Shown piece after piece: positions 341 to 27,540 of a stretch of 64,000 bases of DNA. Where the stretch lies: assembly GCA_965206765.1 (NCBI GenBank), contig OZ242222.1, forward strand, positions 193,662 to 257,661, given 5' to 3'. The notes under the pieces are model-generated. The model did not search any database, had not been told where the DNA came from, and saw only the letters and a list, made by a program, of their open reading frames with translations. Position 1 is the stretch's first letter. Each line of letters starts with the position of its first letter. This stretch comes from Candidatus Multivorans sp. GTDB taxonomy: Bacteria > Acidobacteriota > Thermoanaerobaculia > Multivoradales > Multivoraceae. The position numbers and the translations under genes were made by a program.

Positions 341-356
341 TCAGTCGGCCGACTGA
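341..356. repeat. Perfect 16-bp palindrome TCAGTCGGCCGACTGA containing the stop codons of both convergent reading frames.
   Basis: Read directly: tcagtcgg/ccgactga are exact reverse complements. The minus-strand gene stops at 341-343 and the plus-strand remnant ORF stops at 354-356. Confidence 0.7.
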
Positions 357-6663: not shown

Positions 6664-9600
6664 TTGTGGTTGTCACGCAATGCTGTGCTAGCGTGCGTCG
6701 CCATGGCGGCGTTCACTTCTGCGGATGGCTCTCCGGTTGACGTCGGCGCCGAGGTGCGGCGCCTCCGAAGTCAGCTCGGGTTGACCCAGGAACAATTCGG
6801 GGACCGTCTAGGCGTCTCGACCATCACCGTTCATCGATGGGAGTCCGGCCAGTCGCAACCGCGGCGGCTTGCGGTTGAGAAGTTGGCGCAACTCTCCGAG
6901 CAGGCGGCGGCAGAGTCGACTCCACGACCGATGCGAGGGCTTCGACTCTCAATTGCGGCTGCCGACGGCGCGCCGCTGGACTTCGCCGGCGATCCGGAGG
7001 CCGTCCTGGCAGTGGCGGACGCTTTGCGACTGTCGTTCGGGCATCAGTTCAACCCGGCGTTCGCGATCGAGACGTCACGCATCGACCCGTTGCTGCATCA
7101 GCGCTTCGCGGTCTACGAGCGGATGCTGAAGCAGGATCCGCTGCGGTTTCTGCTCGCCGACGACGCCGGCGCCGGGAAGACGATCATGACCGGCCTGTAC
7201 GTCCGCGAAATGTTGTCGCGTGGGCGTTTGAAGCGGGTGTTGATCGTTCCGCCAGCGGGTCTCGTGGGCAACTGGCGGCGGGAACTCCAGACCCTGTTTC
7301 GGCTCGACTTCCGGATCGTCACCGGCGCCGACGTGCGGGGGAGCAACCCGTTCCGCGGCGCGGGAAGCGATCGCGTCATTGTCTCCGTGGACACGCTGGC
7401 GGGGGAGACCATGTTCGAGGCTCTTCGCCAAGCCGGTGGTCCGGCCTACGACTTGGTCGTTTTCGACGAGGCCCACAAGCTGAGCGTGCGTGAACGGGGA
7501 GTCCGGGTCGAGCGAACTCTCCGTTACAAGTTGGCCGAGGCGCTGGCTGTCAGGGCCGACTCGGGCAGTTCCTTTGGCGGGCTCGGCTGGACTGCCCGGC
7601 ATCTGCTGCTGCTTACCGCTACGCCGCACATGGGCAAGAGCGTCCCCTACGCATGGCTCTGGAGACTGCTCGATGCCGACGCCTTCGGGGCAGTGGAAGC
7701 CGTACGCCGTGCCCCCCAACTGACCCGCGACCGGCACTTCCTTCGCCGCACGAAGGAGGAAATGGTCGGCCTCGACGGCGAGCCGCTCTACCCGCAGCGC
7801 AAATGCAGCACGTTCACGTACGAGCTGAGCGGAGGGGACTGCGGCGAGCAGGATCTCTACGACCGCACGACGCAGTACCTCGATGAGCACTACGGCCGCG
7901 CTCTCGACAATCAACCGGCGCTGGAACTGGCCAAGACCGTGTTCCAGCGACGCCTTGCCAGCTCGACCTGGGCGTTGTTGCGCTCCTTCGAGCGGCGGAT
8001 CGAGAAGCTCGCGCAGACCGCGGACGCGATCGAGAGCGGCGAACTCACCGCGGAGCTGTTGCAGCGCAGGCAGGCGCTGCTGGGCAACCGCTATCGGCAC
8101 GACTATTTCGACGACACGGCCGCGGACGAGGACGTGGCGTCGGACGGCTTTGCCGAGGGAAACGAGGCCTACGAGGATGCGGTGCTCGGCGCGGTCACCG
8201 TGGTCGGCGTGGAGGAGCTGAGGCGCGAGGCCCGGCAGGTCGAGACGTTGGCGGAGCGGGCGCGCCGGCTGGTCGATTCCGGGCGGGAGACGAAGTTCGA
8301 GCGCTTGCAAGAGGTCCTGGAGAGGCCCGAGCATCAGAACGAGAAGTGGCTCATTTTCAGTGAGCACCGGGACACGGTGGACTACCTGGTGCGGCGACTT
8401 GAGGGGCTCGGATACCGGGGGCAGACAGCGCAGATCCATGGCGGCATGGACTGGAAGGAGCGCGACCGCCAGGTGGAGGCCTTTCGCCGTCCGAACGGCG
8501 CGCGCTACATGGTGGCCACCGACGCCGCGGGGGAGGGCATCAACCTGCAGTTCTGCCGCTTGATGGTCAACTACGACATTCCGTGGAACCCGGCCCGCTT
8601 GGAACAGCGGATGGGCCGGATCCATCGCTACGGCCAGCAGTTCGAGGTCCGAATCGTGAACCTGGTAGCGGGCAGCACGCGCGAGGGACGGGTGCTGCAG
8701 GTGCTTCTGGAGAAGCTCGAGGAGATTCGTGCTGAACTGGCCTCCGACAAGGTGTTCGATGTCATCGGCCGCCTGTTCGAGGGCGAGTCGCTGACCGGGT
8801 TCATGGCCAACGCCGTGACCGCGGAGGGCGAGCGGCTGGCTGTTGACCGGATCGAAGAAGCGCTCGGCACTTCCAGGGTGAAGAGAATCCGCGCGCGCGA
8901 CGCCGAGGTCTACGGCGTGCCGAAACAGAAGGTGACCGGTGAGGACCTGCGACCGGACGTGGAGCGAGAGCGTTACCTGCAGCTCCTTCCTGCACACGTT
9001 CGTCGGCTAGTGGAACGTGGGGCCCGCCTGCTCGACGTCGAGATTCGCGGCGACCTGGACGACCGGTTCGCACTCGAGCCGGGCCGTCCCGGCGCGCTCG
9101 ACCCCTTGCTGTTGGCGCTGGAAGCCTATCCGCCCGAGGCGCGCGACTGGTTGACTGTTCGCCGGCCTCGGGAAGACGACACCGGCATCTGGCTCCATCC
9201 CGGCGAGCCGCTGTTCGACGCTCTGTGCACGCATATCCGGTCTCGCTATGGCAGGGACGCGCAGCGCGGCGCCATCTTCGTCGATCCGAGGGCCGGGGAG
9301 CCCTACCTACTTCATCTCGCCGAGTTGCGGGTGGAGCGGAAGGACGTCCCTGGGAACGCCGTCGCCTCCGTCCCTGGGAACGCGGGCGTCTCGCCCGCAT
9401 CCGGCCCGGAAGGGTCGCCCCAGACCGGTTCGGCGGTACTTCCGGTTGCCGACCGGCGCGTTCTGGAACGCCGGCTGGTGGCGTTGCAGCAACGAGAGGG
9501 CGCCCAGCCGGTTCAGTGCCCCGTTGAGCAACTGCTGTCGCTTTCCGGCACCGGTCTGGCGCCTGGCATGGCGCCGCTGGCGCCGCGCGCCCCTGTGCTG

Positions 9601-10476
9601 CGGGCGCAGGCCGGCGCCCACCTGAACAACGTCCTCCAGGATCTGGTTGCCGACCTCCGCGCCAGACGCGAGGCCGAGTCGCCGGACCTCCGGCGGCGCG
9701 TTGCCGTGGGCTTCGATCTGCGCGCGGCCGAGTTGGCCTCTCGGCGCGGGAAGCTCGCGCGGAAGAGGGTCGGCCCAGGCGAGGCCGACGGCGATGAACT
9801 CAAGGCAGTGAAGCACGAGCAGAGGCGACTGTCCTGCGACCGCGAACTCGCACTGCGGCGGATCGATGAGGAGGCACGGGGCATCGTTCCCGGCGGCTCC
9901 CGGTTCCTGCTTCACGCGCTTGTCGTTCGCCCGGAGGATGTGGCCGGGCTGGAGACCATCGAGCGGTTCGACGAGGCCGTGGAGGAGATCGCAGTCCGCA
10001 TCGCCGCCGATTGGGAGCGTCAACACGGCGCCCAGGTCCAGGACGTGTCAAAGCCTGTGCTCGCCCGCGCGGCGGGTCTGCCCGACTGGCCCGGCTTCGA
10101 CCTTCTGGCGACGCTGCCGGGCGGCGGCCAGCGCTGCATCGAAGTGAAGGGCCGCTCGGCCCGCTCCGCGGTTCCGGTCGAGAACAACGAATGGGCCCAG
10201 GCATGCAAGCTGGGCGACCGGTACTGGCTCTACGCCGTCCTCGACTGCGCCACGCCGGCGCCCGAACTGCTCCGGGTCCGGAACCCGTTCGAGAAGCTGC
10301 TGGCGCACCAGCGGGTCAAGACCGTGTTCGATGTGCCGGTGGGATCGTTGATCGAAGCTGCGGAGGCCGAAGAACCGAAGCTGGAACCCGCGCGGCGCGA
10401 CTCCGCGCCGGGCGCGAACCAGTCCGAGCGTCCGTCAGCGGGCGCACGGATGGCAGGTCGGGGGGGACCAACATGA
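6664..10476 (+). CDS. XRE-family HTH fused to an SNF2/DEXH-box helicase with a C-terminal DUF3883 (restriction-endonuclease-like) domain. This is the helicase component of the DUF499/DUF1156 restriction-modification-like module.
   Basis: HTH: LGLTQEQFGDRLGVSTITVHRWESG. Motif I: DDAGAGKT. Motif II: FDEAHKL. HelicC: GEGINLQ...RIHRYGQ. DUF3883: CIEVKGRSA...NNEWAQA...YWLYAV. TTG start at 6664, with an alternative ATG at 6703. Confidence 0.85.
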   Translation: MWLSRNAVLACVAMAAFTSADGSPVDVGAEVRRLRSQLGLTQEQFGDRLGVSTITVHRWESGQSQPRRLAVEKLAQLSEQAAAESTPRPMRGLRLSIAAADGAPLDFAGDPEAVLAVADALRLSFGHQFNPAFAIETSRIDPLLHQRFAVYERMLKQDPLRFLLADDAGAGKTIMTGLYVREMLSRGRLKRVLIVPPAGLVGNWRRELQTLFRLDFRIVTGADVRGSNPFRGAGSDRVIVSVDTLAGETMFEALRQAGGPAYDLVVFDEAHKLSVRERGVRVERTLRYKLAEALAVRADSGSSFGGLGWTARHLLLLTATPHMGKSVPYAWLWRLLDADAFGAVEAVRRAPQLTRDRHFLRRTKEEMVGLDGEPLYPQRKCSTFTYELSGGDCGEQDLYDRTTQYLDEHYGRALDNQPALELAKTVFQRRLASSTWALLRSFERRIEKLAQTADAIESGELTAELLQRRQALLGNRYRHDYFDDTAADEDVASDGFAEGNEAYEDAVLGAVTVVGVEELRREARQVETLAERARRLVDSGRETKFERLQEVLERPEHQNEKWLIFSEHRDTVDYLVRRLEGLGYRGQTAQIHGGMDWKERDRQVEAFRRPNGARYMVATDAAGEGINLQFCRLMVNYDIPWNPARLEQRMGRIHRYGQQFEVRIVNLVAGSTREGRVLQVLLEKLEEIRAELASDKVFDVIGRLFEGESLTGFMANAVTAEGERLAVDRIEEALGTSRVKRIRARDAEVYGVPKQKVTGEDLRPDVERERYLQLLPAHVRRLVERGARLLDVEIRGDLDDRFALEPGRPGALDPLLLALEAYPPEARDWLTVRRPREDDTGIWLHPGEPLFDALCTHIRSRYGRDAQRGAIFVDPRAGEPYLLHLAELRVERKDVPGNAVASVPGNAGVSPASGPEGSPQTGSAVLPVADRRVLERRLVALQQREGAQPVQCPVEQLLSLSGTGLAPGMAPLAPRAPVLRAQAGAHLNNVLQDLVADLRARREAESPDLRRRVAVGFDLRAAELASRRGKLARKRVGPGEADGDELKAVKHEQRRLSCDRELALRRIDEEARGIVPGGSRFLLHALVVRPEDVAGLETIERFDEAVEEIAVRIAADWERQHGAQVQDVSKPVLARAAGLPDWPGFDLLATLPGGGQRCIEVKGRSARSAVPVENNEWAQACKLGDRYWLYAVLDCATPAPELLRVRNPFEKLLAHQRVKTVFDVPVGSLIEAAEAEEPKLEPARRDSAPGANQSERPSAGARMAGRGGPT

Positions 10477-11021
10477 TGATGAGAAAGGAACAACGAAAGA
10501 TGGGACTCACCCACGTTCAAGTGACTATCCGAAACCCCGCCGACGCCGAGCGAAGCTGGGCAGGCGCCTTCCTGGTCGACACCGGCGCCATCGACTCCCT
10601 CGTGCCGAGAGAGCGACTGGAGCAGATCGGTTTGAAGCCGAAGGGGCGGCGGGTCTACGGATTTGCGGATGGAAGAGAAGCTGCGATGGACATCACGGTT
10701 GCGGAGTTGGAGTTCATGGGGGAGGTCATCGGCAGCACGGTCGTCTTCGGAAGAGAGGGCTCTGAACCTCTCCTGGGCGTTACGGCGCTGGAGTCGATGG
10801 GCATCGAGATCGATCCTGTGAGTCAACGACTGAGGAAGCTGCCTTCGATTCACTTGAAGACGACAGCAGACTCCGAACGGCCCTTGCGGGTGACCTCCGA
10901 GCAAGAGCCGGAAGGCGCGCGTTCCGCCACGGGCCATCCGATGCCCACCGACCTGATGAGGCCGCCCGAGGAGGCCTCGGCCCGGCCGCGTTCGGCAGGA
11001 CCTCTGAGGGGGACTGCATGA
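10473..11021 (+). CDS. Retropepsin-like (clan AA) aspartyl protease. Its start ATG overlaps the helicase stop (ATGA).
   Basis: FLVDTGAIDSLVP carries the catalytic D-T-G. The overall pattern is that of the bacterial PF13650/PF13975-like aspartyl protease family. The tool ORF at 10011 has a 154-aa N-terminal extension that lies inside the helicase gene. Confidence 0.7.
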   Translation: MMMRKEQRKMGLTHVQVTIRNPADAERSWAGAFLVDTGAIDSLVPRERLEQIGLKPKGRRVYGFADGREAAMDITVAELEFMGEVIGSTVVFGREGSEPLLGVTALESMGIEIDPVSQRLRKLPSIHLKTTADSERPLRVTSEQEPEGARSATGHPMPTDLMRPPEEASARPRSAGPLRGTA

Positions 11022-12124
11022 CTGCCTTCGAAGTTGCTGTCGTGCTGCTCGACTCGGTCGAGGAGCACCCCAACGCCGACCGTTTGGAGTTGGCCCGCGT
11101 CGGCGGCTACCGCAGTGTCGTTCCCAAGGGGAAGTACCGGGCCGGTGAGCGGGTCGCCTACATCCCGGAGAACGCGATCGTTCCGGAGGATTTGCTGAGA
11201 AGCATGGGACTTTGGGATGGCGATGCCGGCAAGGGCCGGCTCGGCGGCAAGAAGGGCGACCGGGTCCGGCCGGTCAGGCTGCGGGGCGAGATCTCCCAGG
11301 GTCTGGTATTCAAGCCGGCGGACGATGCAGCGGTCGGCGACGATCTGGCCGCCGCCTACGGCATCACGAAGTACGAGCCGAAGCTCCCCACAACGATGTC
11401 CGGCCAGGTCGCCCACGTCGGCGGCTTCCTCGTTTCCTATGACATCGAGAACATCAAGAAGTACCCGGACGTGTTCGTGCCCGGTGAGATGGTCGTGGTG
11501 ACCGAGAAACTTCACGGGACATACGCGTGCTTCAGCTACATCCCGCCGCCGGACGGCGCCTCGCTCCCCGACGATCTGCCCAACGGCGCCGTGTTGGTGT
11601 CGTCGAAGGGACTCGGCGCGAAGGGCCTGGCGTTCAAGGACGTGGAGGACAACAAGAACAACCTCTACCTGCGAACGTGGAGGGAGCAGTTGCGAGACAC
11701 CGGCGTCTGGCGCCGCGTGGAGGACTCCGCTCAGGGTCCCGTCCACATCATGGCCGAGATCTTCGGTCGCGGCGTGCAGGACCTGCACTACGGGTTGGCG
11801 CGTCCGTCGCTGAGAGTCTTCGACGTGTTCCTGGGGCCGCCCGCCACCGGTTCGTTCCTTGGCTACGACGCGCTCTGCCGGACGACCGACGCCTGGGGCA
11901 TGGACCGGGTGCCGGAACTCGCCGTTGCTCCGTTCAGCGAAGATCTGATCGAAGAGCACCGCGACGGACCCGACACCGTGTCCGGCAACCACATGCGGGA
12001 AGGCATCGTCATCACGCCCAGGCAGGAGCGGCAGGACCGGCGGCTGCACCGGGACAGGGTGAAGCTGAAGGCAGTCAGCCCCGACTACCTGTTCCGCCGG
12101 GGGAAGAGGACGGAGTACGAATAG
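11018..12124 (+). CDS. ATP-dependent RNA ligase (Rnl2/DRB0094-like nucleotidyltransferase) with an N-terminal tRNA-binding OB domain. ATGA overlap with the protease stop.
   Basis: tRNA_bind-like HPNADRL...G. Ligase motif I: EKLHGT (KxHG, as in T4 Rnl2 KIHGT). Further motifs: EIFG, REGIVI, KLK. Confidence 0.65.
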   Translation: MTAFEVAVVLLDSVEEHPNADRLELARVGGYRSVVPKGKYRAGERVAYIPENAIVPEDLLRSMGLWDGDAGKGRLGGKKGDRVRPVRLRGEISQGLVFKPADDAAVGDDLAAAYGITKYEPKLPTTMSGQVAHVGGFLVSYDIENIKKYPDVFVPGEMVVVTEKLHGTYACFSYIPPPDGASLPDDLPNGAVLVSSKGLGAKGLAFKDVEDNKNNLYLRTWREQLRDTGVWRRVEDSAQGPVHIMAEIFGRGVQDLHYGLARPSLRVFDVFLGPPATGSFLGYDALCRTTDAWGMDRVPELAVAPFSEDLIEEHRDGPDTVSGNHMREGIVITPRQERQDRRLHRDRVKLKAVSPDYLFRRGKRTEYE

Positions 12125-12244: not shown

Positions 12245-13480
12245 GTGCGTTGGACGTTGCAACGACCTGAAATCGGAAACGAGGATGGTTTCGAGAAGAC
12301 GGATCTCTTCGGTTACGCGAATCTCGGAGCAAGGCTGGCGAACGTGATCGCCGGTTTGGAGGACGATCCCATTGTCGTTCTGGATGGCGGCTGGGGCAGC
12401 GGCAAGACGACCTTCGCCCTTCAGTGGGCGGGTCTCCTGAGGCGGCGAGGTACAGCGGTCCTCTACTTCGATGCGTTCGCCTGCGACCATGAGGAGGATG
12501 CACTCCTAGCCTTCGCCGAGGAGGTCTACTGCTTCGCCGAGAAGGAAGGCGTGGCCAAGGAGCATCTCGGCAACTTTGCGGCCAAGGGAGCGAAAGCGAT
12601 CAAGGCGGCCTCACTTGCTGCGTTCAAGTCGCTCGGCGGGAACGTTCTGGGGGTCGACATCACCGCCGCCGCGACGGAGATCGCAGGAGTGCTGACGGAG
12701 GAGTCCCGGCTGGAGGCTTGGATCAGCGGAGTCGCGGCTCGCAGGCACGCAGTGGAGGACTTTCGGGCCGAACTCCAGCGGCTTGCCGGCGCGGTGGCGG
12801 AGAAGGCTCGCGAACGAGTCGAGGAGAAGAGTGCCGAGACGGCTGCCGAAAGTGAGCGCCCGCAGGCGGCAGGGCGGCTGGTCATCGTTGTGGATGAGCT
12901 GGACCGCTGCAGGCCAGCTTTCGCGCTGAGCGTACTGGAACGCGTCAAGCATGTGTTCGGCGTTCCGGGAGTGACATTCGTGCTCGTGGCAAACCTGGAC
13001 GAGCTTGGGAAGTCGGTCCGGTTTGCCTACGGCGAGGTGGACGCAGAGAAGTACCTGGAGAAGTTCTACGACCTTGTCGTGCGGCTTCCGGATGCTCGGA
13101 GGGCTGGCAGCGGCGTACCGAAGACGCGGATCTACGCTGCGTATCTCGAAGAGAGGCTGTTGTCGGGGTTCTCGAATCTCGAGATACACATGCGGGCCCT
13201 CACAAGACTCGCCGAGAAGGAGCGGATGTCTTTACGGACTATGGAGCATGTGGTTCGCAATGTCGCCGTTCTGGCGCTTGGAGAACACGGCGGTTGGGAC
13301 AGTTGGAATGCGCTGTCCGTCCCGGTGCTTGTCAGCGTCATTCGTCTCGTCTATCCGGAACTTTTCGCTCAGATAAGAGAGGGGCAGCCTGATGGCTTGG
13401 AAGAAGGGGATTGGGAGAAAGTGACGGAGTTGGCGGAAGAGATTCTGTTTGGCGCGAACCAGGACAGGACACTAGTGTAG
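12245..13480 (+). CDS. KAP-family P-loop NTPase. The native C-terminus of about 29 aa was replaced by IS630 insertion; its last 3 codons are IS-derived.
   Basis: Walker A: LDGGWGSGKTTF. KAP-type Walker B: VIVVDELDRCRP. GTG start at 12245 preceded by GAGGAGAGG. The ORF runs into the IS630 left inverted repeat. Confidence 0.8.
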   Translation: MRWTLQRPEIGNEDGFEKTDLFGYANLGARLANVIAGLEDDPIVVLDGGWGSGKTTFALQWAGLLRRRGTAVLYFDAFACDHEEDALLAFAEEVYCFAEKEGVAKEHLGNFAAKGAKAIKAASLAAFKSLGGNVLGVDITAAATEIAGVLTEESRLEAWISGVAARRHAVEDFRAELQRLAGAVAEKARERVEEKSAETAAESERPQAAGRLVIVVDELDRCRPAFALSVLERVKHVFGVPGVTFVLVANLDELGKSVRFAYGEVDAEKYLEKFYDLVVRLPDARRAGSGVPKTRIYAAYLEERLLSGFSNLEIHMRALTRLAEKERMSLRTMEHVVRNVAVLALGEHGGWDSWNALSVPVLVSVIRLVYPELFAQIREGQPDGLEEGDWEKVTELAEEILFGANQDRTLV

Positions 13481-14611
13481 TGTCTCCGACTTGGGTTGAC
13501 AGTTTCGGTTAAGTTCGTCAGTATTCCGTTCATGTGGGAACCAGCGGAACGAATTGACATCGAAGAGAGCGATCGAGCGCTTCTCAAGAAATGGGTAGAG
13601 GCGCCGACGACCACGCAACGCACGGTCCGGCGTAGCCGGATCGTGCTCGCTGCGGCGGAGGGCATGGCCAATCGGGCGATCGCGGCGAAACTCGGAGTTT
13701 CGCGGCCGACGGTGCTGCTGTGGCGTCGTCGGTTCGCGGAGGACGGACCTTCGGGGCTGACCAGGGATCGTCCCCGCGGTTGCGGAAAGCCGCCGCTCTC
13801 GGAGTCGGTCGTGCGTAAAGTGATCGAAGCGACGCTGCACGAGAAGCCGCCCGGTCAGACCCACTGGAGCGTGCGTTCGATGGCTCGGGCCCAGGGCATC
13901 AGTCCGGCGGCGGTCCAGCGCATCTGGGCGGCGCACGGGCTGAAGCCCCATCTGGTCAAGACGTTCAAGCTGAGCAACGACCCCAGGTTCGTGGAAAAGC
14001 TGCGGGACGTTGTGGGCCTGTACCGGAATCCGCCCGAGAACGCGCTTGTGCTGTGCGTGGACGAGAAGAGCCAGATCCAGGCTCTGGACCGGACCCAGCC
14101 GGGCTTGCCGCTCAAGCGCGGCCGCGCGGGAACGATGACCCACGACTACAAGCGCAACGGGACGACGACGTTGTTCGCTGCGCTGAACGTGTTGGAGGGC
14201 ACGGTGATCGCGGAGTGCATGGGCCGGCAGCGCCATCAGGAGTTTCTCCGTTTCCTCAAGCGTCTCGACCGCGAGATCCCGAACCATCTCGACCTGCACC
14301 TGATCCTGGACAACTACCAGACCCACAAACACGCCGCCGTGCGCGCATGGCTGGAGCGAAAGCCTCGCTTCCACTTCCATTTCATTCCCACTTCGTCGCC
14401 CTGGCTTAACCTGGTCGAACGCTGGCTGGGCGGTCTGACCACGAAGGCGATCCGGCGCGGTGCATTCCAGAGCGTCAACGACCTCGTAAAGACCATCTAC
14501 GACTACGTGGAGAACAGCAACCAAAACTCCCGTCCCTTCGTCTGGACGGCCACCGCCGACAGCATCATCGCAAAGGTTACACGTGGTAAAGCCATGTTGG
14601 AGACAGTACAC
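13475..14611 (+). mobile_element. IS630-family insertion sequence (about 1.14 kb) with imperfect terminal inverted repeats and TA target-site duplication.
   Basis: Left end GTGTAGTGTCTC (13475-13486) and right end GAGACAGTACAC (14600-14611) match 11/12 as inverted repeats. Flanking TA at 13473-13474 and 14612-13. Confidence 0.75.
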
Positions 14612-14614
14612 TAG
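13496..14614 (+). CDS. IS630-family DDE transposase.
   Basis: HTH N-terminus, then LCVDEKSQIQAL...DNYQTHKH...FHFIPTSSPWLNLVERWL. Possible alternative start at 13532. Confidence 0.85.
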   Translation: MTVSVKFVSIPFMWEPAERIDIEESDRALLKKWVEAPTTTQRTVRRSRIVLAAAEGMANRAIAAKLGVSRPTVLLWRRRFAEDGPSGLTRDRPRGCGKPPLSESVVRKVIEATLHEKPPGQTHWSVRSMARAQGISPAAVQRIWAAHGLKPHLVKTFKLSNDPRFVEKLRDVVGLYRNPPENALVLCVDEKSQIQALDRTQPGLPLKRGRAGTMTHDYKRNGTTTLFAALNVLEGTVIAECMGRQRHQEFLRFLKRLDREIPNHLDLHLILDNYQTHKHAAVRAWLERKPRFHFHFIPTSSPWLNLVERWLGGLTTKAIRRGAFQSVNDLVKTIYDYVENSNQNSRPFVWTATADSIIAKVTRGKAMLETVH

Positions 14615-14700
14615 CGAACGAGATACTGGACAAATCGAAGTTGTCGCCCCGCAGCGGGCTGTCCGAGGCCGCACGGAAGCTCGATGCCTTTGATGTATAG
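14615..14700 (+). other. Displaced original 3' end of the KAP NTPase gene. In-frame continuation ...ANEILDKSKLSPRSGLSEAARKLDAFDV* once the IS630 and one TA are removed.
   Basis: Joining 13474 to 14614 restores an open frame that runs to the TAG at 14698-14700. Confidence 0.5.
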
Positions 14701-14716
14701 GGCGATGTGCAGAAAC

Positions 14717-15992: not shown

Positions 15993-16020
15993 TGCAGAAA
16001 CACACTAGAGGGAGAGCGAT

Positions 16021-16338
16021 ATGACGGCCGCTGAACCAGGGAAGCAGCAAGTACCGGCACGACTTGAACACGAGATCAGGAAGAGCCGTGTCCGCGTCTA
16101 TGTGACGTACATCATGACCTGGACGTATGCCGTCTCTGCGACTTTCGTGGTGGTCTGGCTTCTCGTCGTTCTCAAGCAGCCCGAGCTGGCTCTGGGCGTC
16201 TTCTCCGGGCTCGCCTCGACCACGGCGGCGATCACAGCCTTCTGGTTCGGTTCACGAGGTTCTGCGGCGGAATCGAAGGTAACGGGTCGGGAGCGTGTGT
16301 CGGCGCCGCGAACCGGTTCGCAGGGCGAAGACCTTTGA
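16021..16338 (+). CDS. Hypothetical small membrane protein (2 predicted TM helices).
   Basis: ORF with hydrophobic stretches YVTYIMTWTYAVSATFVVVWLLVVL and ASTTAAITAFWF. No recognised family. Confidence 0.3.
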   Translation: MTAAEPGKQQVPARLEHEIRKSRVRVYVTYIMTWTYAVSATFVVVWLLVVLKQPELALGVFSGLASTTAAITAFWFGSRGSAAESKVTGRERVSAPRTGSQGEDL

Positions 16339-16562: not shown

Positions 16563-17030
16563 TCAACCAACGGTAGCGCGGGCGCTGCTCGATTCCGGCG
16601 CTGCTCGATCCCCGACGACCAGGCGGCGACCGAGGGTGCGGAGAACAGTCGCGATGTAGTCGAGCCGTGAGGGCCGGTCAAGGTCGAGAAGCCGACGGAC
16701 CTTGGCCTCGCGAACACCCAGAGACCGGGCGAGCGAGCGGGCCGAGACGCCTTTGCGGCGCATTGCGGTGTAGAGAGCCAGTTGCGCCGCCGTCCGTGGG
16801 GGCACGGTGATCAGGTGATGTTCTGCAGAGGCGGGACTTGGGCGAGGGATGTCCTCCTCAGCGTCGACGTACATGCTGAGGGCAACGAGGAGGGCGTCCT
16901 CGGCGAGCGACAGGGATTCCTCCCGCGTAACGCCCGCGGTGAGCGCCTCGGGCAGGTCCGGGAAAGTGACGAGGTAGCACGAGGCGTCGCCGTTGTCGTG
17001 TGTGAGCAGGCAGGGATAGGCGTAGTCCAT
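16563..17030 (-). CDS. hicB: HicB-family antitoxin (RNase-H-like N-terminal domain plus C-terminal DNA-binding region).
   Basis: CYLVTFPDLPEALTAGVTREESLSLAEDALLVAL matches the HicB/UPF0150 N-terminal signature. Lies directly downstream of the hicA-like ORF. Confidence 0.6.
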   Translation of the reverse strand: MDYAYPCLLTHDNGDASCYLVTFPDLPEALTAGVTREESLSLAEDALLVALSMYVDAEEDIPRPSPASAEHHLITVPPRTAAQLALYTAMRRKGVSARSLARSLGVREAKVRRLLDLDRPSRLDYIATVLRTLGRRLVVGDRAAPESSSARATVG

Positions 17031-17265: not shown

Positions 17266-17404
17266 GGCGGCCAGCCGGGCTACGATTGGCCGCCATGCAT
17301 CCCCGTTGCTCAGCTTCGCGTGGCCGCCAACGATCCCCTGTGTCGCACCGGCGAGGCCGTCGTACTTGATAGATCATCGCCCTCCGAGCGGTAGCGTTGG
17401 CCCA

Positions 17405-20400
17405 GTGAACCCCGACACCCGGCTGATCGAGGCGGCGTTTCCCTTGCGCCAGACGTCGCTGGACTCGGTTCACGAGAAGAACGTCCGGCACGGTCACATC
17501 TCGACGCTTCACATCTGGCCGGCTCGGCGGCCGTTGGCGGCCTGCCGGGCGGCGCTCCTGGCGACGCTCCTGCCTGATCCTGGCGACGCGGAGGGGCGGC
17601 GGCGGTTGATGGCACGGATCGCCGGCGAGGTGCGCCAGCGGCAGACGCCGGCGGGCAAGCTGAAGGACGAGACGGCGGGCGGCGTCCTGCACTGGGGGCG
17701 CGAGAGCTCGCCTGAACTCGAGAAGCTGCGGCACGAGGTCAGGGAGGCGTTCGGGGGGCGGGCGCCACGGGTGCTGGACCCGTTCGCGGGCGGCGGCGCC
17801 ATCCCGCTGGAGGCGATGCGGCTGGGCTGTGACGTCACGGCGTCTGACCTCAACCCGGTGGCCTGGTTCGTGCTGCGCTGCACGCTGCACTACCCGCGGC
17901 TGCTTGCGGGGCAGGAACTGCCGCTGCCGGACTTCGCGGTCCGCGACCGGAGCTTCGTTGAGGCGTTCCTCAAGGCGCAGGGGGTGACGAAGAAGGTCGC
18001 GTTGCGCGAGAGGTTGCGCGAGTTGGGGCATTCGGACGGCGAGCCGGTGCAACTGCGGTCGGCGTTGCTCGACCGTGCTGTGGATTCCACCCGGATCGGG
18101 GAGCGAACAGCGGCGGCGCGGGATAGCGATCCGTCCCTGGGAACGCGGGCGTTCCGCCCGCATCCGGCGCGAGACGGCGCCGGACCCGCCCTGCCTGCCG
18201 ACTTCCCTTGGCATCTACGAGCTTGGGGTCGCCGGGTTCTGGCCGAGGCACGGCGCGAACTGGCGCGGCGCTATCCGACCTACGCGGAGTTCGAGCCCGT
18301 GCGGCGGAAGGGCCGTGGCAGGCGGAATGCCGAGGTCTCGTTCCCTGAGAGGCGCTTCCGGCCGCGGTCGCCGGAACTGCTTGAACCGGACGATGAGGGC
18401 AACGTGTCGGTGGCGGCCGTGAACGCCGAGTTCGATTCGGTCCACCTGGAGAACGAGGCGAACCCGCGCTGGGTAGCGAAGCCGACGGTTGCCTACCTAT
18501 GGGCGCGCACGGTCCGTTGCGCGAACTGCCGGGCGGAGCTGCCGCTGCTGAAGACGCGTTGGCTGTGCAAGAAGCCCGGCAAGCGGATCCTGCTTCAGGT
18601 GACGCCGCGGAAAGACGGTTCGGGCGTGGACTTCGCGCTGGAGCACGGCGTGCCGGAAGGCGAGGGGAACGCGGCCAGGCGGCGCGAGCACGACCGCCGG
18701 CTGGGCGCCGCAACGATGAGCCGCAGCGGGGCCAAGTGCCCTTGCTGTTCTGCCATCGCGACGATGGCCGACCTCCGCAACGAGGGGCGCGCGGGGCGGC
18801 TCGGCGAGAGGATGACGGCGGTTGTTGTGGGCGGTCAGCAGGGCAAGGAGTACCGACTGCCGACCGAGGCGGAGATCGCAGTGGCGGCGGTTGGGGAGGA
18901 AGAGCTGCGTTGCCTCTATGCGGAACTCCCGTTCGGCTTGCCGGAGGAGCCGACCCCCAGCGAGAAGGCGCTCGGGATGCGTGTGCCGCGCTACGGCTTC
19001 GATACATGGCGCAAGTTGTTCACGAACCGGCAGTTGCTGGCTCTGGGGATGTTCGTGCGGTCGATTCGAAGCGCTCCAGCCGGGATGAACGACTATCCGG
19101 AGGAGTGGCGCGAGGCCTTGTCGGTGTGCCTCGCCCCTTCGATCAGTCGATTGACGGATCGCTGCAGCACTCTGGCAACCTGGACGAACGATCACGACAA
19201 GATCCGGAGTACGTTCGCTCGCTTTGCGCTACCGATGGTTTGGGACTTCGCTGAGTCATGTCCCCTTGCCGACACGACTGGCGGCTTTGTCCAGGCGGCG
19301 GAGTGGGTCGCACGGGTGTGCGAACACCTTCAGCGGGCTGCTAAGGACGCCCCGTTGCCCGAGGTCGCTCAGAAGTCCGCGACGCGATCGTGGGGCTCCG
19401 GAGCCTTCGACGTCATCTGCACCGATCCGCCCTACTACGACGCCATTCCCTACTCGGACCTGATGGACTTCTTCTTCGTTTGGCTGCGCCGGACTCTGTA
19501 CGGCGTTTCGGCAGCCGGCGATGACGCCTTCGCCGGGCCTCTCGGCCCCAAGTGGAATGCGGCAGCGTCGAGCGGCCAGGGCGATGGCGAGCTGATCGAC
19601 GACGCCTCCCGCTTCGGCGGCGACCGCCGCGCGTCCAAGCAGAACTACGAGGACGGCATGGCGCGAGCCTTCGGACGTTTCCACGACGCGCTGCGTGATG
19701 ACGGGCGGTTGGTCATCGTCTTCGCGAACAAGCAGCCCGACGCCTGGGAGACCTTGGTTTCTGCCCTGATCCGGGCTGGTTTCGTCGTTTGTGGCTCGTG
19801 GCCGATCCACACGGAACGGCTAAACCGGCAGCGTTCCCTGGCGTCGGCGGCGTTGTCGTCGTCCATCTGGTTGGTTTGCCGCCGCCGCCCGGCGGCTGCA
19901 CGACCGGGCTGGGATGGCGGAGTGCTGGCCGAGATGCGCTCCAACATCACCGATCGCCTGCGACAGTTCTGGGACGCGGGCATTCGGGGCCCGGACTTCG
20001 TATGGGCGGCGACCGGTCCGGCGCTTGAGGCCTTCAGCCGCCATCCTGTCGTCAAGAAGGCCGACGCCCAGGGTGAACTGCTGTCGGTCGCCGAGTTTCT
20101 GCGCCAGGTGCGAAGAATGGTGGTGGGCTTTGCCGTCAGTCGCCTGCTCGCGAACGGGTCGGACGAATCACGAGCGGCGGTGGAACTCGACGACTTGACG
20201 ACCTACTACCTTCTGCACCGCCACGACTACGGGCTGGACGCGGCGCCTGCCGGCGCATGCATTCTCTACGCCGTCTCCTGCAACCTGTCGGACGCCGAAC
20301 TCGCTGGCGGCCTGGATCTGCTGGCGCGCGGCGGCGCCTCCACGACCGCGGTCTCGGACGAAGATGGGGACGAGGACGGGCCAGAGACCGCCGGTTCGGC

Positions 20401-20722
20401 TTCCGAGGCCCGGCTAAAGCCCTGGAACCGCCGCCGCAGCCGCAATCTGGGCCAGCCGGCGGCGGACGGCGCGCCGCCGCCCCTGATCGACTGCGTCCAT
20501 CGGCTGATGCAACTCTGGAAGACCGGCGAGCAGACGCGCGTGGATCGCTACCTGGCCGACCGCGGGCTATGGCGCCACGAACTGTTCGCCCGCGTCGTTC
20601 AGGCGGTCATCGAACTCGCCGGCGAGGGCGCCGAAGAGCGGTCCATCCTGGAGTCGATCCAGAACCACCTGCAGGGCCGCGGCGCCGCCGCGCCCGCTCC
20701 GCGGCAGCGGAGCATGTTGTAG
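17405..20722 (+). CDS. DUF1156 (COG1743) N6-adenine DNA methyltransferase with Zn-ribbon, about 1100 aa. This is the methylase component of the DUF499/DUF1156/helicase module.
   Basis: N-terminus RLIEAAFPL...EKNVRHGHISTLHIWPARRPLAACRA is typical of DUF1156. Motif I: LDPFAGGGAIPLEA. Motif IV: DPPY in FDVICTDPPYYDAIPYSD. Zn-ribbon: CANC...CPCC. Probable GTG start at 17405 (the tool ORF starts at TTG 17306). Confidence 0.85.
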   Translation: MNPDTRLIEAAFPLRQTSLDSVHEKNVRHGHISTLHIWPARRPLAACRAALLATLLPDPGDAEGRRRLMARIAGEVRQRQTPAGKLKDETAGGVLHWGRESSPELEKLRHEVREAFGGRAPRVLDPFAGGGAIPLEAMRLGCDVTASDLNPVAWFVLRCTLHYPRLLAGQELPLPDFAVRDRSFVEAFLKAQGVTKKVALRERLRELGHSDGEPVQLRSALLDRAVDSTRIGERTAAARDSDPSLGTRAFRPHPARDGAGPALPADFPWHLRAWGRRVLAEARRELARRYPTYAEFEPVRRKGRGRRNAEVSFPERRFRPRSPELLEPDDEGNVSVAAVNAEFDSVHLENEANPRWVAKPTVAYLWARTVRCANCRAELPLLKTRWLCKKPGKRILLQVTPRKDGSGVDFALEHGVPEGEGNAARRREHDRRLGAATMSRSGAKCPCCSAIATMADLRNEGRAGRLGERMTAVVVGGQQGKEYRLPTEAEIAVAAVGEEELRCLYAELPFGLPEEPTPSEKALGMRVPRYGFDTWRKLFTNRQLLALGMFVRSIRSAPAGMNDYPEEWREALSVCLAPSISRLTDRCSTLATWTNDHDKIRSTFARFALPMVWDFAESCPLADTTGGFVQAAEWVARVCEHLQRAAKDAPLPEVAQKSATRSWGSGAFDVICTDPPYYDAIPYSDLMDFFFVWLRRTLYGVSAAGDDAFAGPLGPKWNAAASSGQGDGELIDDASRFGGDRRASKQNYEDGMARAFGRFHDALRDDGRLVIVFANKQPDAWETLVSALIRAGFVVCGSWPIHTERLNRQRSLASAALSSSIWLVCRRRPAAARPGWDGGVLAEMRSNITDRLRQFWDAGIRGPDFVWAATGPALEAFSRHPVVKKADAQGELLSVAEFLRQVRRMVVGFAVSRLLANGSDESRAAVELDDLTTYYLLHRHDYGLDAAPAGACILYAVSCNLSDAELAGGLDLLARGGASTTAVSDEDGDEDGPETAGSASEARLKPWNRRRSRNLGQPAADGAPPPLIDCVHRLMQLWKTGEQTRVDRYLADRGLWRHELFARVVQAVIELAGEGAEERSILESIQNHLQGRGAAAPAPRQRSML

Positions 20723-21130: not shown

Positions 21131-21167
21131 TCCATTTCCGCATCGAGGAGACGATGTGCCCGATCTC

Positions 21168-23615: not shown

Positions 23616-24253
23616 GAGCCAGCGAGGAACCCCGCAGCCTGATCGTTCTGGCTGCGGACAAGCACATCAAGGCGTCCTTGGAGACGCTGCTTGAGCGGCG
23701 CCGGACGGACTTGGCTATTTGTGACATCACGTTCGAAGCGTATCGTCATCCACAGTCGGATCCGGGCTGCAGGACGAAAGCGGCTGAGTTTCTGCGCTCA
23801 TTCATCAGGCAGTACCGCTACGCACTCGTGGTCTTCGATTGGAACGGATGTGGCAGCACGAGCGCGGCAGAGAGCATTCAAGCCGCGGTCGAGCAGGACC
23901 TTGGCCGCAACGGCTGGATGGAGCGGTCGAAGGTGGTCGTGATCTCCCCGGAAGTTGAGGCTTGGGTGTGGAGTTCTTCCGACCACGTCGCACAGGTTCT
24001 TGGATGGGCCGGAGGGCTAGGCCGTCTTCGTTCGTGGCTCGAGGACAGAGGGCTCTGGTCGGCAGGCGACTTGAAGCCGGCTGATCCCAAGAAGGCTATG
24101 GCCCAAGCACTACGCCATCGGCGCCGAGTGCGATCGTCCGTGCTGTTCAGTGACTTGGCGGCTTCCGTCGAGTTCGACCGTTGCGAGGACCGTGCTTTCA
24201 AGGAGCTCATCGGGACGCTACGAACCTGGTTTCCGCGAAGCAAGGCGGCGTGA
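23612..24253 (+). CDS. DUF4276/RloB-like small partner of the AAA_21 ATPase. ATGA overlap with the ATPase stop and GTGA overlap with the DUF499 start.
   Basis: About 213 aa, immediately coupled to the ATPase. C-terminal EVEAWVW resembles the conserved E-x-E-A-W motif of DUF4276 partners. This assignment is by context and weak motif only. Confidence 0.45.
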   Translation: MRASEEPRSLIVLAADKHIKASLETLLERRRTDLAICDITFEAYRHPQSDPGCRTKAAEFLRSFIRQYRYALVVFDWNGCGSTSAAESIQAAVEQDLGRNGWMERSKVVVISPEVEAWVWSSSDHVAQVLGWAGGLGRLRSWLEDRGLWSAGDLKPADPKKAMAQALRHRRRVRSSVLFSDLAASVEFDRCEDRAFKELIGTLRTWFPRSKAA

Positions 24254-27200
24254 CCAGGCCACGTCCCAAACCCTGGCACGAAGTCGTCCGGCTCAAGGAC
24301 GAGCTGCGCTCGGGCGAACTGTCGCTGGCGGAGTTCGCAGCCGATCTGCATGAGGTCACGCTCAGACGGGGCAAGCGGCCGGTGTACGAGGAGCCGGAGA
24401 AGTTCTTCGCGCTGACCTATCCCACGCACGCGTTGCGGGAGCTCGTTCGTGATGTGGCGGCGCGGCTCGCGGGGCGAAGCGACAAGGCGGTGCGGCAGTT
24501 GGAGTTGACGTACGGCGGCGGCAAGACGCATACGTTGATCGCGCTCTATCACTTGTTCCGGGACCCGGATGGTCTGCCGGACGTGCCGGCGGTGAGTGAG
24601 TTTCGCCAACACGCGGGTCACCAGTTGCCGGGGGCGCACACGGCGGCGCTGTGCTTCGACAAGATCGACGTTGAACGCGGCATTGAGGGTGTGCGTTCTC
24701 CAGGTGGCGAGACCCGGACCCTGCGGCATCCGTGGAGCGTGCTCGCGTATCAACTCGGCGGCGATGACGGCCTGCGGGCGATCCACGGCGCGGGTAGTGC
24801 CGAGGAGCGTGAGACGCCCCCGGCCGAGCCCTTGCTGGTGAAGTTGCTGGAGCGCCCGCAAGAGCGCGGCCTCGGAACGCTCATCCTGGTAGACGAGGTC
24901 CTGATGTACGCGCGGGAGAAGGCCGGCCAGGACCGCGTGTGGCGGGATCGCATCATCGACTTCTTCCAGTACCTCGTGCAGGCGACAACGAAGGTCGACC
25001 GCGCGGCGCTGGTCGCATCCCTGCTCGCGACCGATCCCGCCAAGCAACAGGGCGCCGAGGGCCAGCGGCTGATCGAGGATCTGTTCGACGTGTTCCGCCG
25101 GCAGCGGGAGGAGGGCGTGCAGCCGGTCGGAAGGAAGGACGTGGCGGAAGTGCTGCGCCGGCGGTTCTTCGAGCCGGCGGCGTTGCGGGACACCGAGTCG
25201 TGGCGGTCGCAGGCGATCGGGGCGGTGCGAGAGCTGGCCGGTCTCGACGAGACGACAGCCAAGAACAGGAAGACGGAAGAGGACCGTTTCGAGGACAGCT
25301 TTCCATTTCATCCCGATCTGACCGACGTGTTCTACAGCCGGTGGACGCAGCTTCCGGGCTTTCAACGCACCCGCGGCATTCTGCGTATTCTGGCGACCGC
25401 GTTGCGTGAGGCAGAGTCCTGGGATGGGAGTCCCCTGGTGGGCCCTTCGGCGCTGCTGACGGCCCAAGGGACGGAGGGCATCTCGGAAGCCGTGCGCGAA
25501 CTGGCCGGCGTAGCGAGTTCGGAGGTCGGCGAGGGCGCGAGAACCGACTGGGTCACGCTGCTGGAGGCCGAGTTGGACAAGGCGCGGCAGATCCAGGCGG
25601 AGCTGCCGGCCCTGGCGGCCAGCCGCGAGTTGGAGCAGGCTGTGCTGGCGGTCTTCCTCTACTCTCAGCCGATCGGCCGGAAGGCCTCGACGCCGGAGTT
25701 GCTACGGATGGTCGGCGCCGGCGGTCCCGACAAGATCATGCTCCGCAAGGGGCTAGCCCGCTGGCGTGAACTGTCCTGGTTCCTGGACGACGAGGACGTC
25801 GGCGCCGATGTTCACGGCGTAGAGGGGGGCCTGCCCAAGTCCTGGCGGCTTGGCAATCGTCCCAATCTGCGCCAGATGCACGACGAGGCTTGCAAGGAGC
25901 GCGTGTCGACGCAGGCTGTCGAGGCCCGTCTCGAGGAGGCAGTTCGTCAAGCCAGAGTGCTCACGGACGGCGCCCGCGCTGCCGGCGCCGCCGTCCACAT
26001 GTTGCCGGCGTCCCCAAAGGATGTCGGCGACGATGGCGCCTTCCGCTACGTCGTGCTGGGACCGGATGCCGCCTCGGAATCCGGCAAGCCCAGCGCGCTG
26101 GCGAAGCGATATCTGGCCGAGACCACCAGCCCGGACCGCCCGCGTGTTCATCGCAATGCGGTAGTTCTGGGTGTGCCGTCGCGCGATGGCCTGGCGGCGG
26201 CCCGCGGCGGCATCCGCGCGTTGCTCGGCTGGGAGGACGTGAAAGGCCAGCTCACGGGGCAGACGGTCGATGCGATGCAGGCCGAGCGGCTCGGGCGGCA
26301 GCTTCGAGATGCGCGCGCGCGGGTTCCCGACGCCGTGCGGCAGGCGTACTGCGTGGTTGTTGCCGCGGGCACGGACGGCGACACGCAGGCGTTCAAGCTG
26401 CCGGGCGCCGCCGGGCCGCTGTTCAGCGAAATCAAGGGCGACCAGCGGTCACGGATCCGGGAGACTCCGGTCGACGCGGAAGCCCTCTTGCCGGGCGGAC
26501 CCTACGACTTGTGGCGTGAGGGTGAGCAGGCGCGATTCGTGAAGGACCTTGCCGGCGCATTCGCCCGCTATTCGCATCTCCCCAAGGTACTGAGGCCGCA
26601 GATCGTTCGTGAGACGGTGCTGCAGGGCGTGGAACGCGGTCTCCTCGTTGCCCAACTGGCGCGGCCGGACGGGAGTTGCCGAACCTGGTGGAGGGAGCCG
26701 GTGGATTCGGAATGCGTAGACGATCTTGCGCTTGAGGTGGTACTTCCGGGCGGCGCCGAGCTGAAACGTCTCGCCCCGTCCCTGCTGGAGCCGGGGAGGT
26801 TGCCAGGCCTGTGGCCGGATGGGGGCCGCGGAGTCGACCTCACAGCTCTGTTGGAGTACTTCGGCGGTGACTTCACGGTGACCGTCTCCCACGAGGGTTA
26901 CGACGACGTGGTCGAGATTCCGGGCTGCTCTCAGGCAGTCGCGGAAGAGGTCGTCTGTCAGGCCGTAGAGCAGGGCTTCGTATGGCTGCGCAACGGGCCG
27001 ACCTCGGTGTGGAAGGAGGAGGTTCCCTACGGCGCCCTCAATGAACGTGCGGTGCTGCTGCGGTCGCCCGATGAATTGACGCCCCAGGAACTGGTCGAGG
27101 AAGCGCTACCCGGGGCGTGGAGCGACGAACAGGCGACCGGCTGGGGCCTGTCGCAGGCGCTGTCGCAAGTCCGGGGGGAGCCGGTGCCGTGGGGGTTGCT

Positions 27201-27540
27201 GCGTGAGGGGATCTCCAACGCGGTGCGTAGTCGCTGGTTGGAGGTCGCCGAGGGCAGTACCTCGGCCAGTTCCGAAGACGCCGCCGCTTTGAAGATTCAA
27301 CGCCCAGCGGATGGCCAGACGCCCGAGCCATCGCCGGGTCCTCGTGTCGCCGACGCGCTGCTTGAGGCGAACGAGATCCAGGATCTTGCTGACAGGCTTC
27401 CCGATCTTCTAGGCGCCAGTGCCGGGTGCGGTTTGAAGTTTCGCGTGAGAGTGGAACTTGGCGAGGATGCACCGGCCGAAGCGCGTGACAAACTGAACGA
27501 GGTGCTCCGGGAGGTGTCGGACGATCTGAAGGCCGGGTAG
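24250..27540 (+). CDS. DUF499 (COG1483, BrxC/PglY-like) large AAA+ ATPase. This is the ATPase component of the DUF499/DUF1156/helicase module.
   Basis: GTG start gives MTRPRPKPWHEVVRLKDELRSGELSLAEFAADLHEV (typical DUF499 N-terminus). Walker A: TYGGGKTHTLIALYHL. Length about 1100 aa. Confidence 0.8.
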   Translation: MTRPRPKPWHEVVRLKDELRSGELSLAEFAADLHEVTLRRGKRPVYEEPEKFFALTYPTHALRELVRDVAARLAGRSDKAVRQLELTYGGGKTHTLIALYHLFRDPDGLPDVPAVSEFRQHAGHQLPGAHTAALCFDKIDVERGIEGVRSPGGETRTLRHPWSVLAYQLGGDDGLRAIHGAGSAEERETPPAEPLLVKLLERPQERGLGTLILVDEVLMYAREKAGQDRVWRDRIIDFFQYLVQATTKVDRAALVASLLATDPAKQQGAEGQRLIEDLFDVFRRQREEGVQPVGRKDVAEVLRRRFFEPAALRDTESWRSQAIGAVRELAGLDETTAKNRKTEEDRFEDSFPFHPDLTDVFYSRWTQLPGFQRTRGILRILATALREAESWDGSPLVGPSALLTAQGTEGISEAVRELAGVASSEVGEGARTDWVTLLEAELDKARQIQAELPALAASRELEQAVLAVFLYSQPIGRKASTPELLRMVGAGGPDKIMLRKGLARWRELSWFLDDEDVGADVHGVEGGLPKSWRLGNRPNLRQMHDEACKERVSTQAVEARLEEAVRQARVLTDGARAAGAAVHMLPASPKDVGDDGAFRYVVLGPDAASESGKPSALAKRYLAETTSPDRPRVHRNAVVLGVPSRDGLAAARGGIRALLGWEDVKGQLTGQTVDAMQAERLGRQLRDARARVPDAVRQAYCVVVAAGTDGDTQAFKLPGAAGPLFSEIKGDQRSRIRETPVDAEALLPGGPYDLWREGEQARFVKDLAGAFARYSHLPKVLRPQIVRETVLQGVERGLLVAQLARPDGSCRTWWREPVDSECVDDLALEVVLPGGAELKRLAPSLLEPGRLPGLWPDGGRGVDLTALLEYFGGDFTVTVSHEGYDDVVEIPGCSQAVAEEVVCQAVEQGFVWLRNGPTSVWKEEVPYGALNERAVLLRSPDELTPQELVEEALPGAWSDEQATGWGLSQALSQVRGEPVPWGLLREGISNAVRSRWLEVAEGSTSASSEDAAALKIQRPADGQTPEPSPGPRVADALLEANEIQDLADRLPDLLGASAGCGLKFRVRVELGEDAPAEARDKLNEVLREVSDDLKAG

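Follow-up and report, generated by a model that had tools for sequence, protein, structure and literature searches.

A putative retropepsin-like aspartic protease gene embedded in the Hma locus of Candidatus Multivorans and its occurrence in restriction-type and other operons

The protease gene, its start and its family

The window analysed here is a 64,000-nt stretch of contig OZ242222.1 (assembly GCA_965206765.1) of Candidatus Multivorans sp. (Acidobacteriota). It carries a locus of the Hma (helicase-methylase-ATPase) restriction-like system with a small gene, very probably coding for a retropepsin-like aspartic protease, embedded between hmaA and hmaB (Table 1). The gene upstream of the protease, called a helicase in the initial annotation of this stretch, is hmaA, with a likely start at ATG 6703, which is the consensus start in the alignment. 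The Hma locus is 21 kb long and at least nine genes are nested in it, the protease among them; the other nested genes include an RNA ligase, a KAP NTPase, an 862-aa open reading frame (ORF), a HicB-like gene, an amidohydrolase, and HEC-01-like ATPases. The hmaA, protease, and ligase genes are tightly spaced on the same strand, and no promoter- or terminator-like sites were found on the plus strand between positions 10000 and 13600. In PADLOC, Hma is defined by HmaA, HmaB, and HmaC only. When PADLOC-DB v2, including its HEC and PDC candidates, was searched at E <= 0.01, no family was matched by the protease and none by the RNA ligase.

Table 1. Positions of the protease gene, its parts, and the main genes of the surrounding Hma locus in the window
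Feature	Position	Strand	Evidence and remarks
hmaA: XRE-type helix-turn-helix (HTH), SNF2/DEAD helicase core, and NOV_C (DUF3883) nuclease-like domain	6664..10476	+	PADLOC HmaA 1.5e-157; Pfam HTH_31, Helicase_C, SNF2-rel_dom, NOV_C
Optional 9-codon N-terminal extension of the protease (ATGATGATG...)	10473..10499	+	holds the hmaA stop and AAAGGA (10484-10489)
Putative retropepsin-like aspartic protease gene, family-conserved start	10500..11021	+	173 codons; hidden Markov models (HMMs), homologue starts, AlphaFold2, Foldseek
Conserved protease core	10500-10859	+	first 120 codons
Catalytic D-T-G-A codons (GAC ACC GGC GCC)	10578..10589	+	aligns with DTGA of ApRick (PDB 5c9b/5c9d)
Hydrophobic-hydrophobic-Gly motif LLGVTALES (in EPLLGVTALES)	10770..10796	+	aligns with LLGMSLLE of ApRick
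C-terminal tail up to the ligase start	10860..11018	+	residues 130-182, 53 codons; unconserved, predicted disordered
DraRnl-type RNA ligase with N-terminal OB domain	11018..12124	+	TIGR02306 203.6 bits (cut-off 151.15); PF09414, PF21189
KAP-family P-loop NTPase, embedded in the Hma locus	12245..13480	+	PF07693 5e-30; PADLOC PDC-S20 3.5e-57
hmaB: DUF1156 DNA methyltransferase	17306..20722	+	PADLOC HmaB 9e-112; PF06634
hmaC: DUF499-type ATPase	24181..27540	+	PADLOC HmaC 9.5e-75

The ORF of the protease spans positions 10473-11021 of the plus strand and has 182 codons; its translation includes FLVDTGAIDSLVP. Its first nine bases, ATGATGATG (10473-10481), contain the TGA stop (10474-10476) of the upstream 1270-aa hmaA ORF. 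At the other end, its TGA (11019-11021) shares bases with the next ORF, whose ATG is at 11018, in the form ATGA. The ORF, the D-T-G motif, the bases ATGATGATG, and the overlaps had all been read correctly in the initial annotation, as was seen on re-reading of the window.

In a scan with one genome per species, 561 relatives of the protease were found, and the best 80 loci were analysed for context. MG(L/A)THV is the N-terminus in nearly all relatives and equals ATG 10500 of the window, which is separated from the hmaA stop by a gap of 23 nt. Almost every one of the 80 genome loci has AAGGAG or GGAGG 6-12 nt before the conserved ATG, and in the window ATG 10500 is served by the Shine-Dalgarno-like AAAGGA at 10484-10489. 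Judged by this conservation, ATG 10500 is the predicted family-wide start, and the in-frame RKEQxK that is conserved before MG(L/A)THV in close relatives is probably the Shine-Dalgarno site read as protein. In the window and in all seven Acidobacterial Hma loci sampled (8/8), the hmaA stop overlaps with an in-frame ATG as ATGA. In locus L012 the internal ATG is replaced by ACG, and the upstream start must therefore be used there. The start at 10473, whose ATGATGATG is clade-specific, is thus plausible as an additional, coupled start in the Acidobacterial Hma clade. It was this start over the helicase stop that had been proposed at first; the sequence is right and the start could well be used in the clade, but the one shared by the family is predicted at 10500.

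The junction of hmaA and the protease could also be explained by a gag-pro-style -1 frameshift, with slippage at the G7 run 10460-10466 (G GGG GGA), by which the protease would be made as a C-terminal extension of HmaA. The run is indeed present, and the protease is coded in the -1 frame with respect to hmaA, a frame that is open from 10011. However, at 66% GC long open stretches in other frames are nothing unusual, the run is unconserved (loci L009, L011, and L012 have GGAGGGGA), and a stop, a spacer, and a canonical Shine-Dalgarno site precede the ATG in most loci. Such a fusion is hardly credible, and it was rejected because the run is not conserved and the stop, the spacer, and the Shine-Dalgarno site are the rule.

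In NCBIfam, the translation matched TIGR03698 with 74.7 bits (cut-off 57.35, E 6e-21) over positions 1-106 of the 107 in the model. In Pfam, PF13975 (gag-asp_proteas) and PF13650 (Asp_protease_2) were matched above their gathering scores, with 31.3 vs 28.2 bits and 28.0 vs 24.3 bits, respectively. A database search gave 1528 homologues, most of them about 126 aa long and with core identity of 60-78%; close relatives are already labelled 'clan AA aspartic protease' by NCBI. The ratio of nonsynonymous to synonymous substitution rates (dN/dS) in the core is about 0.1-0.3 (Nei-Gojobori, six relatives with unsaturated dS), and the core is under purifying selection. Neither a signal peptide nor a membrane segment was found in the protease.

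The catalytic Asp is coded at 10578-10580 and is Asp27 when counted from Met10. Among 201 family sequences, this Asp is present in 201/201, the Thr and the Gly of the motif in 199/201 each, and the next residue is Ala or Ser in 201/201. Each residue of LLG (10770-10778) is invariant or nearly so in the same set. An invariant Asp together with the DTG and LLG pattern is as expected for an active site under selection. The initial annotation had pointed to a downstream GRE/hydrophobic pattern as fitting this kind of protease; the 'GRE' turned out to be unconserved, and the second motif is EPLLGVTALES. When a profile from 34 homologues was compared with all PDB sequences, ApRick of Rickettsia was the sole match, very weak (E 0.045) and with both DTGA and LLG in register.

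In the AlphaFold2 model, computed with 41 sequences, the predicted local distance difference test (pLDDT) is above 90 over nearly all of the first about 100 residues from Met10. Foldseek gave 258 matches to the PDB at E <= 0.001, with HIV-1, HIV-2, and SIV proteases at the top. These top matches have E of about 2e-6 and a target-normalised template modelling (TM) score of 0.62-0.72 over the whole 99-residue chain, with only 15-23% sequence identity. The modelled protein has a retropepsin fold with a single beta-barrel lobe and an intact D-T-G-A motif. As regards identity alone, the protein is very probably a clan AA (retropepsin-like) aspartic protease of the TIGR03698 family, about 120 aa long. 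A single-lobe protease of clan AA with DTG at the catalytic position had been proposed from the letters of the sequence, and the family matches, the fold matches, and the alignment with ApRick all agree with it; the ORF is conserved as well, so the family assignment stands.

The same fold could belong to an inert protein that acts by binding, e.g., as an adaptor for peptides or proteins, which some RVP domains are, and the Arg that replaces the DTG glycine in two of the 201 sequences would fit such a role. Against it stand the conserved Asp, Thr, Gly, and Ala/Ser positions and the conserved LLG, and an inert binder is very improbable.

The C-terminal tail has pLDDT mostly below 55, and below 50 for model residues 122-140. 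Its sequence is unrelated to that of the congeneric genome at locus L009, while the cores of the two proteins are about 85% identical, and the median length of the relatives is 129 aa. The tail looks like a captured spacer rather than a domain.

Genomic contexts, mobility and candidate role

The 80 protease loci are almost entirely from uncultured metagenome-assembled genomes of a few study sets. They span at least 10 phyla, with Acidobacteriota, Chloroflexota, Latescibacterota, Poribacteria, Nitrospirota, Spirochaetia, Alpha- and Gammaproteobacteria, Planctomycetota, Binatota, and others represented. Neighbouring genes in the fetched loci were called by a crude GC-by-codon-position rule and individual neighbours may be mis-called; the assignments of Hma, hsdM, hsdS, brxL, and cas genes were verified by tblastn or HMM.

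The protease is located between hmaA and hmaB in 18 of the 80 loci, and in 17 of these 18 it is directly behind hmaA or an hmaA 3' fragment. In another 18 loci it is located behind hsdM, a gene of type I restriction-modification (R-M) systems. Thirteen of these are hsdM-protease-hsdS operons, two are cut by the contig end, and three have an hsdM 3' fragment only; in the complete operons the protease stop often overlaps the hsdS start. Four loci, all from Vicinamibacterales (L026, L031, L050, and L066, around 7830-10400), have the protease directly 3' of brxL of BREX, and one locus has the order cas4-protease-cas1 (L069, 9325-11686). The gene is nested between core genes of more than one type of defence system and occurs outside them too, as do the defence-embedded cassettes described by Payne et al. 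(2024; bioRxiv 10.1101/2024.01.29.577857).

The overlaps with both neighbours had been taken at first as a sign of a stoichiometric unit, and a look for recurrent pairing of the protease with SNF2 helicases or RNA ligases had been advised. The corresponding explanation is a dedicated accessory subunit of Hma, which would be kept in fixed ratio with HmaA and the ligase by translational coupling and would process or regulate one of the two; it might, for instance, cut the N-terminal HTH from HmaA, or break down the helicase-nuclease so that restriction is alleviated. This explanation is consistent with the ATGA overlap with the ligase, with the possible ATGA overlap with hmaA in the Acidobacterial Hma loci, and with the position of the protease, which in Hma loci as well as in type I R-M loci comes directly after a first gene fused to an HTH.

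A second survey was centred on HmaA and covered the 80 best HmaA-type metagenome loci, 70 of them with more than 600 nt of downstream sequence. The protease was present in two of these 70 loci and is not a regular neighbour of hmaA, although almost all of the 70 HmaA proteins have an N-terminal HTH, with matches that start at query residue 24-31. That the protease is linked in function to the XRE-type HTH fused to HmaA and HsdM was rejected, since the HTH is general to HmaA relatives and the protease is rare among them.

The RNA ligase is directly 3' of the protease in four of the 80 protease loci (L008, L009, L011, and L017), in metagenome locus L088, and in the window only. All loci with this pair are of Thermoanaerobaculia type, with HmaA 72-89% identical to that of the window. 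Among the relatives of the ligase, identity falls from 77% to 53% in one step, and in none of three relatives at 46-51% identity is the protease adjacent. A protease-ligase pair as a general module was rejected because it is confined to one Thermoanaerobaculia clade and absent from the divergent ligase relatives, and the RNA ligase is most likely a later, clade-specific addition directly behind the protease. The limits of this pairing, the rarity of the protease behind hmaA, its occurrence in at least four other kinds of context, and intact copies beside decayed hmaA or hsdM all speak against the subunit, which is improbable; neither a stoichiometric unit with both neighbours nor a recurrent pairing was confirmed.

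Remnants of the preceding gene accompany the protease in several loci. About 300 nt of the hsdM 3' end are present on both sides of the protease in L040 (10381-10692) and L062 (10381-10733), and in L059 (9810-9956) the hmaA 3' end is repeated in front of the protease. An intact protease stands behind an hsdM 3' fragment only in L044 (9707-9973), L045 (9217-9973), and L072 (9419-9970), and behind an hmaA 3' fragment only in L052 (9631-9915). In L018 (7565-9942), hmaA has an internal deletion by which the part matching residues about 171-496 was lost, and the protease is intact. These arrangements suggest that the protease was transferred with the end of the preceding gene and entered related operons by recombination, and also that selection retains it when the host system decays. 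The duplicated hsdM and hmaA 3' ends thus leave a concrete record of the way in which defence operons acquire embedded genes.

The 120-aa protein is 60-68% identical among Acidobacteriota, Chloroflexota, Latescibacterota, Poribacteria, Spirochaetia, Proteobacteria, Nitrospirota, and Planctomycetota. Such values are unusually high for hosts so distant and imply that horizontal transfer was recent and frequent and took place within one kind of community. The core identity of 60-78% across phyla likewise points to recent horizontal transfer. No matches to the family were found in collections of phages (50,697 records) and plasmids (72,556 records) or in IMG/VR, and a phage, plasmid, or viral origin was rejected on this ground. 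Retroelement genes were not found near the protease. Nor was any small gene found that is conserved as a partner, be it an inhibitor or an antitoxin, when 400 nt upstream and 500 nt downstream were clustered by tblastx; host-operon genes only were recovered. From these comparisons of sequences we infer that the protease is not a subunit of Hma but a cassette of one gene, autonomous and spread by horizontal transfer, because it is in two of 70 HmaA loci, occurs in other contexts, has no partner, and is intact beside decayed systems.

Overall, the genomic context suggests an autonomous, defence-linked proteolytic module that would act as an effector or guard, or as a regulator of restriction-type systems, and a probability of about 0.5 is given to this reading. 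The chance that the protease has a role in defence at all, judged by the same context, is about even. Several points weigh against such a module. In 39 of the 80 loci the protease is outside Hma, type I R-M, BREX, and CRISPR, in heterogeneous contexts, and many of these loci adjoin housekeeping genes (Ldh_2, GST, ArgJ, and an ABC transporter), so a non-defence cellular role is possible. The 80 loci include vertically related genomes, and the counts are therefore not counts of independent events. The sites of embedding may also simply tolerate insertions.

The same points can be explained by a neutral or selfish passenger, a small cytoplasmic housekeeping or stress protease without its own promoter, for which defence operons would be permissive, recombination-prone landing sites. 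Besides the 39 other loci, in which placement behind Ldh_2 and before GST is kept in four Alphaproteobacteria/Pseudohongiella genomes, a passenger would account for the partial duplications of hsdM and hmaA 3' ends, which point to insertion driven by recombination. Moreover, the bacterial retropepsin-like enzymes that have been characterised (RimB, APRc, and Rlo) are reported to have non-immune roles. On the other side, 41 of the 80 loci belong to four mechanistically different kinds of defence locus, which, as a raw count, was judged to be far above the expectation for a housekeeping gene. Some of the 39 other loci have defence neighbours as well, namely pAgo/SIR2, Dsr2, NsnA/B, and HEC-type ABC ATPases, and according to Payne et al. 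(bioRxiv 10.1101/2024.01.29.577857) most embedded genes of Hma, BREX, and R-M systems are related to defence. A passenger is thus a possible but rather unlikely explanation.

As a defence-linked module, the protease would be read from the transcript of the host operon, as comparative genomics indicates. The cassette would repeatedly land directly downstream of the gene that opens or closes a defence operon (hmaA, hsdM, brxL, or cas4) and often bring a 3' end fragment of the upstream gene with it. By analogy with the single-lobe retropepsin family, the protein would be a cytoplasmic homodimer with one catalytic Asp contributed by each subunit, and it would cleave peptide bonds of cytoplasmic proteins. 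Two roles could then be considered. The protease may be a second-line effector or guard similar to PrrC, which sits in type I R-M loci, or it may control or protect the restriction-type systems in which it is embedded.

A more far-reaching version is a stand-alone immune protease that rides on Hma, type I R-M, and BREX and would be the first aspartic protease to serve as an effector or guard against phages. It would fire when anti-restriction proteins of a phage disable the host system, by a logic similar to that of PrrC, or alternatively it would destroy the anti-restriction inhibitors or another phage protein directly; in the window it would additionally be coupled to the RNA ligase. This version is unlikely and is offered tentatively.

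Three properties of the family stand out: it is very strongly conserved across phyla, it is exchanged horizontally, and half of the sampled genomes have it inside a defence locus, these loci being of four unrelated kinds. The family is a cheap and well-defined candidate by 'guilt by embedding', with one 120-aa gene and one obvious inactivating mutation. If it has no role in defence, it will be a caution that embedding alone does not prove immune function.

Other genes of the Hma locus and of the window

The ligase family was also found in other neighbourhoods. At locus L168 (5160-7755), a ligase relative with 51% identity is located between a PIN-domain toxin-antitoxin-like pair and an NTase_sub_bind gene. 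At locus L170, a ligase relative is located 3' of a Peptidase_M78 gene in an apparently phage-like region. Judged by these two neighbourhoods, the ligase family therefore has conflict-type contexts of its own.

Downstream of the ligase, the KAP NTPase is convergent with the 862-aa ORF, which is coded on the minus strand at 13472-16060 and has no match in Pfam, NCBIfam, or PADLOC. The stretch with these two genes has GC content of 0.61-0.62 vs 0.66-0.69. The closest relative (L001/L008) is without both the KAP NTPase and the 862-aa ORF, and its ligase is followed directly by the HicB-like gene. The two genes look like a recent insertion of a two-gene module into the Hma locus. The gene for a HicB-like antitoxin is coded on the minus strand at 16563-17030, between the embedded genes and hmaB; its position is conserved in L001, L002, and L010-L012, and no HicA partner was identified.

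Between hmaB and hmaC, a 224-aa ORF at 20732-21406 matches the N-terminal third only of ABC-type defence ATPases (PDC-M07A/HEC-01A) and is probably a truncated gene. It is overlapped by an ORF with an amidohydrolase domain (PF04909) at 20967-22226; relatives L002 and L007 also have an amidohydrolase between hmaB and hmaC. An intact AAA_15/AAA_21 ATPase (HEC-01A-like, 1.3e-44) and then a small gene with weak matches to mad4 and HEC-01B were annotated at 22341-24253, and both are embedded between hmaB and hmaC.

At a distance from the Hma locus, a protein of 961 aa, in which many leucine-rich repeats are combined with two Calx-beta domains, is coded on the minus strand at 341-3226. It is a eukaryote-like repeat protein, and proteins of this kind are often reported in symbionts.

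Comparison with known systems

The protease resembles the proteins of TIGR03698 ('clan_AA_DTGF') in its size of about 120-130 aa, its one lobe, and its D-T-G-x and hydrophobic-hydrophobic-Gly motifs. It differs by having DTGA and not DTGF in the window, and the name of the family gives the fold and the chemistry, not the role. ApRick, or APRc, of Rickettsia conorii (PDB 5c9b, 5c9d, and 5c9f) is likewise a single-lobe bacterial retropepsin and is the only solved structure that was found by sequence. APRc belongs to another subfamily and is described as a membrane-tied enzyme (PLoS Pathog 2014, PMC4140852), whereas the protein of the window is without a membrane part and is coded in a defence operon. 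With retroviral proteases (HIV-1, HIV-2, and SIV; MEROPS A2), the protein shares the fold and the position of the catalytic motif, but its gene is free-standing and no polyprotein is involved.

Two other groups of bacterial retropepsin-like enzymes belong to other families and contexts, being set apart by their descriptions and by the absence of such matches in the Pfam and NCBIfam scans. RimB of Pseudomonas is reported to take part in the modification of ribosomal protein S6 (J Biol Chem 2025, PMC11957791), and RloA-C are reported to be secreted enzymes related to osmotic stress (mBio 2025, PMC12239564). Proteases of the present kind had been said at first to be rarely annotated in defence contexts, and this holds: the gene is inside an Hma locus, and no link of the retropepsin, PF13975, PF13650, or TIGR03698 family to defence or R-M was found in the searched literature.

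Known proteases of prokaryotic immunity are serine, cysteine, and metallo enzymes, such as the Lon-like BrxL and CalpL, caspase- and CHAT-like proteases, trypsin-like proteases, and Lit. No aspartic protease of prokaryotic immunity was found in the searched literature or in PADLOC.

As a small cassette nested among core genes and also found outside them, the protease resembles PrrC, the rlo genes located between hsdM and hsdS, and the HEC and PDC candidates. Payne et al. (bioRxiv 10.1101/2024.01.29.577857) report embedded genes in 62.7% of Hma systems; many of these genes are defences by themselves, and for several of the candidates this was borne out. The known embedded defences differ from the gene of the window in that no aspartic protease is among them, and the terms aspartyl, gag-asp, and Asp_protease are absent from the text of Payne et al. 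and from the available part of its supplements. Both the enzyme family and the pattern of embedding are known, and their pairing was not found described; what is new is therefore the combination only.

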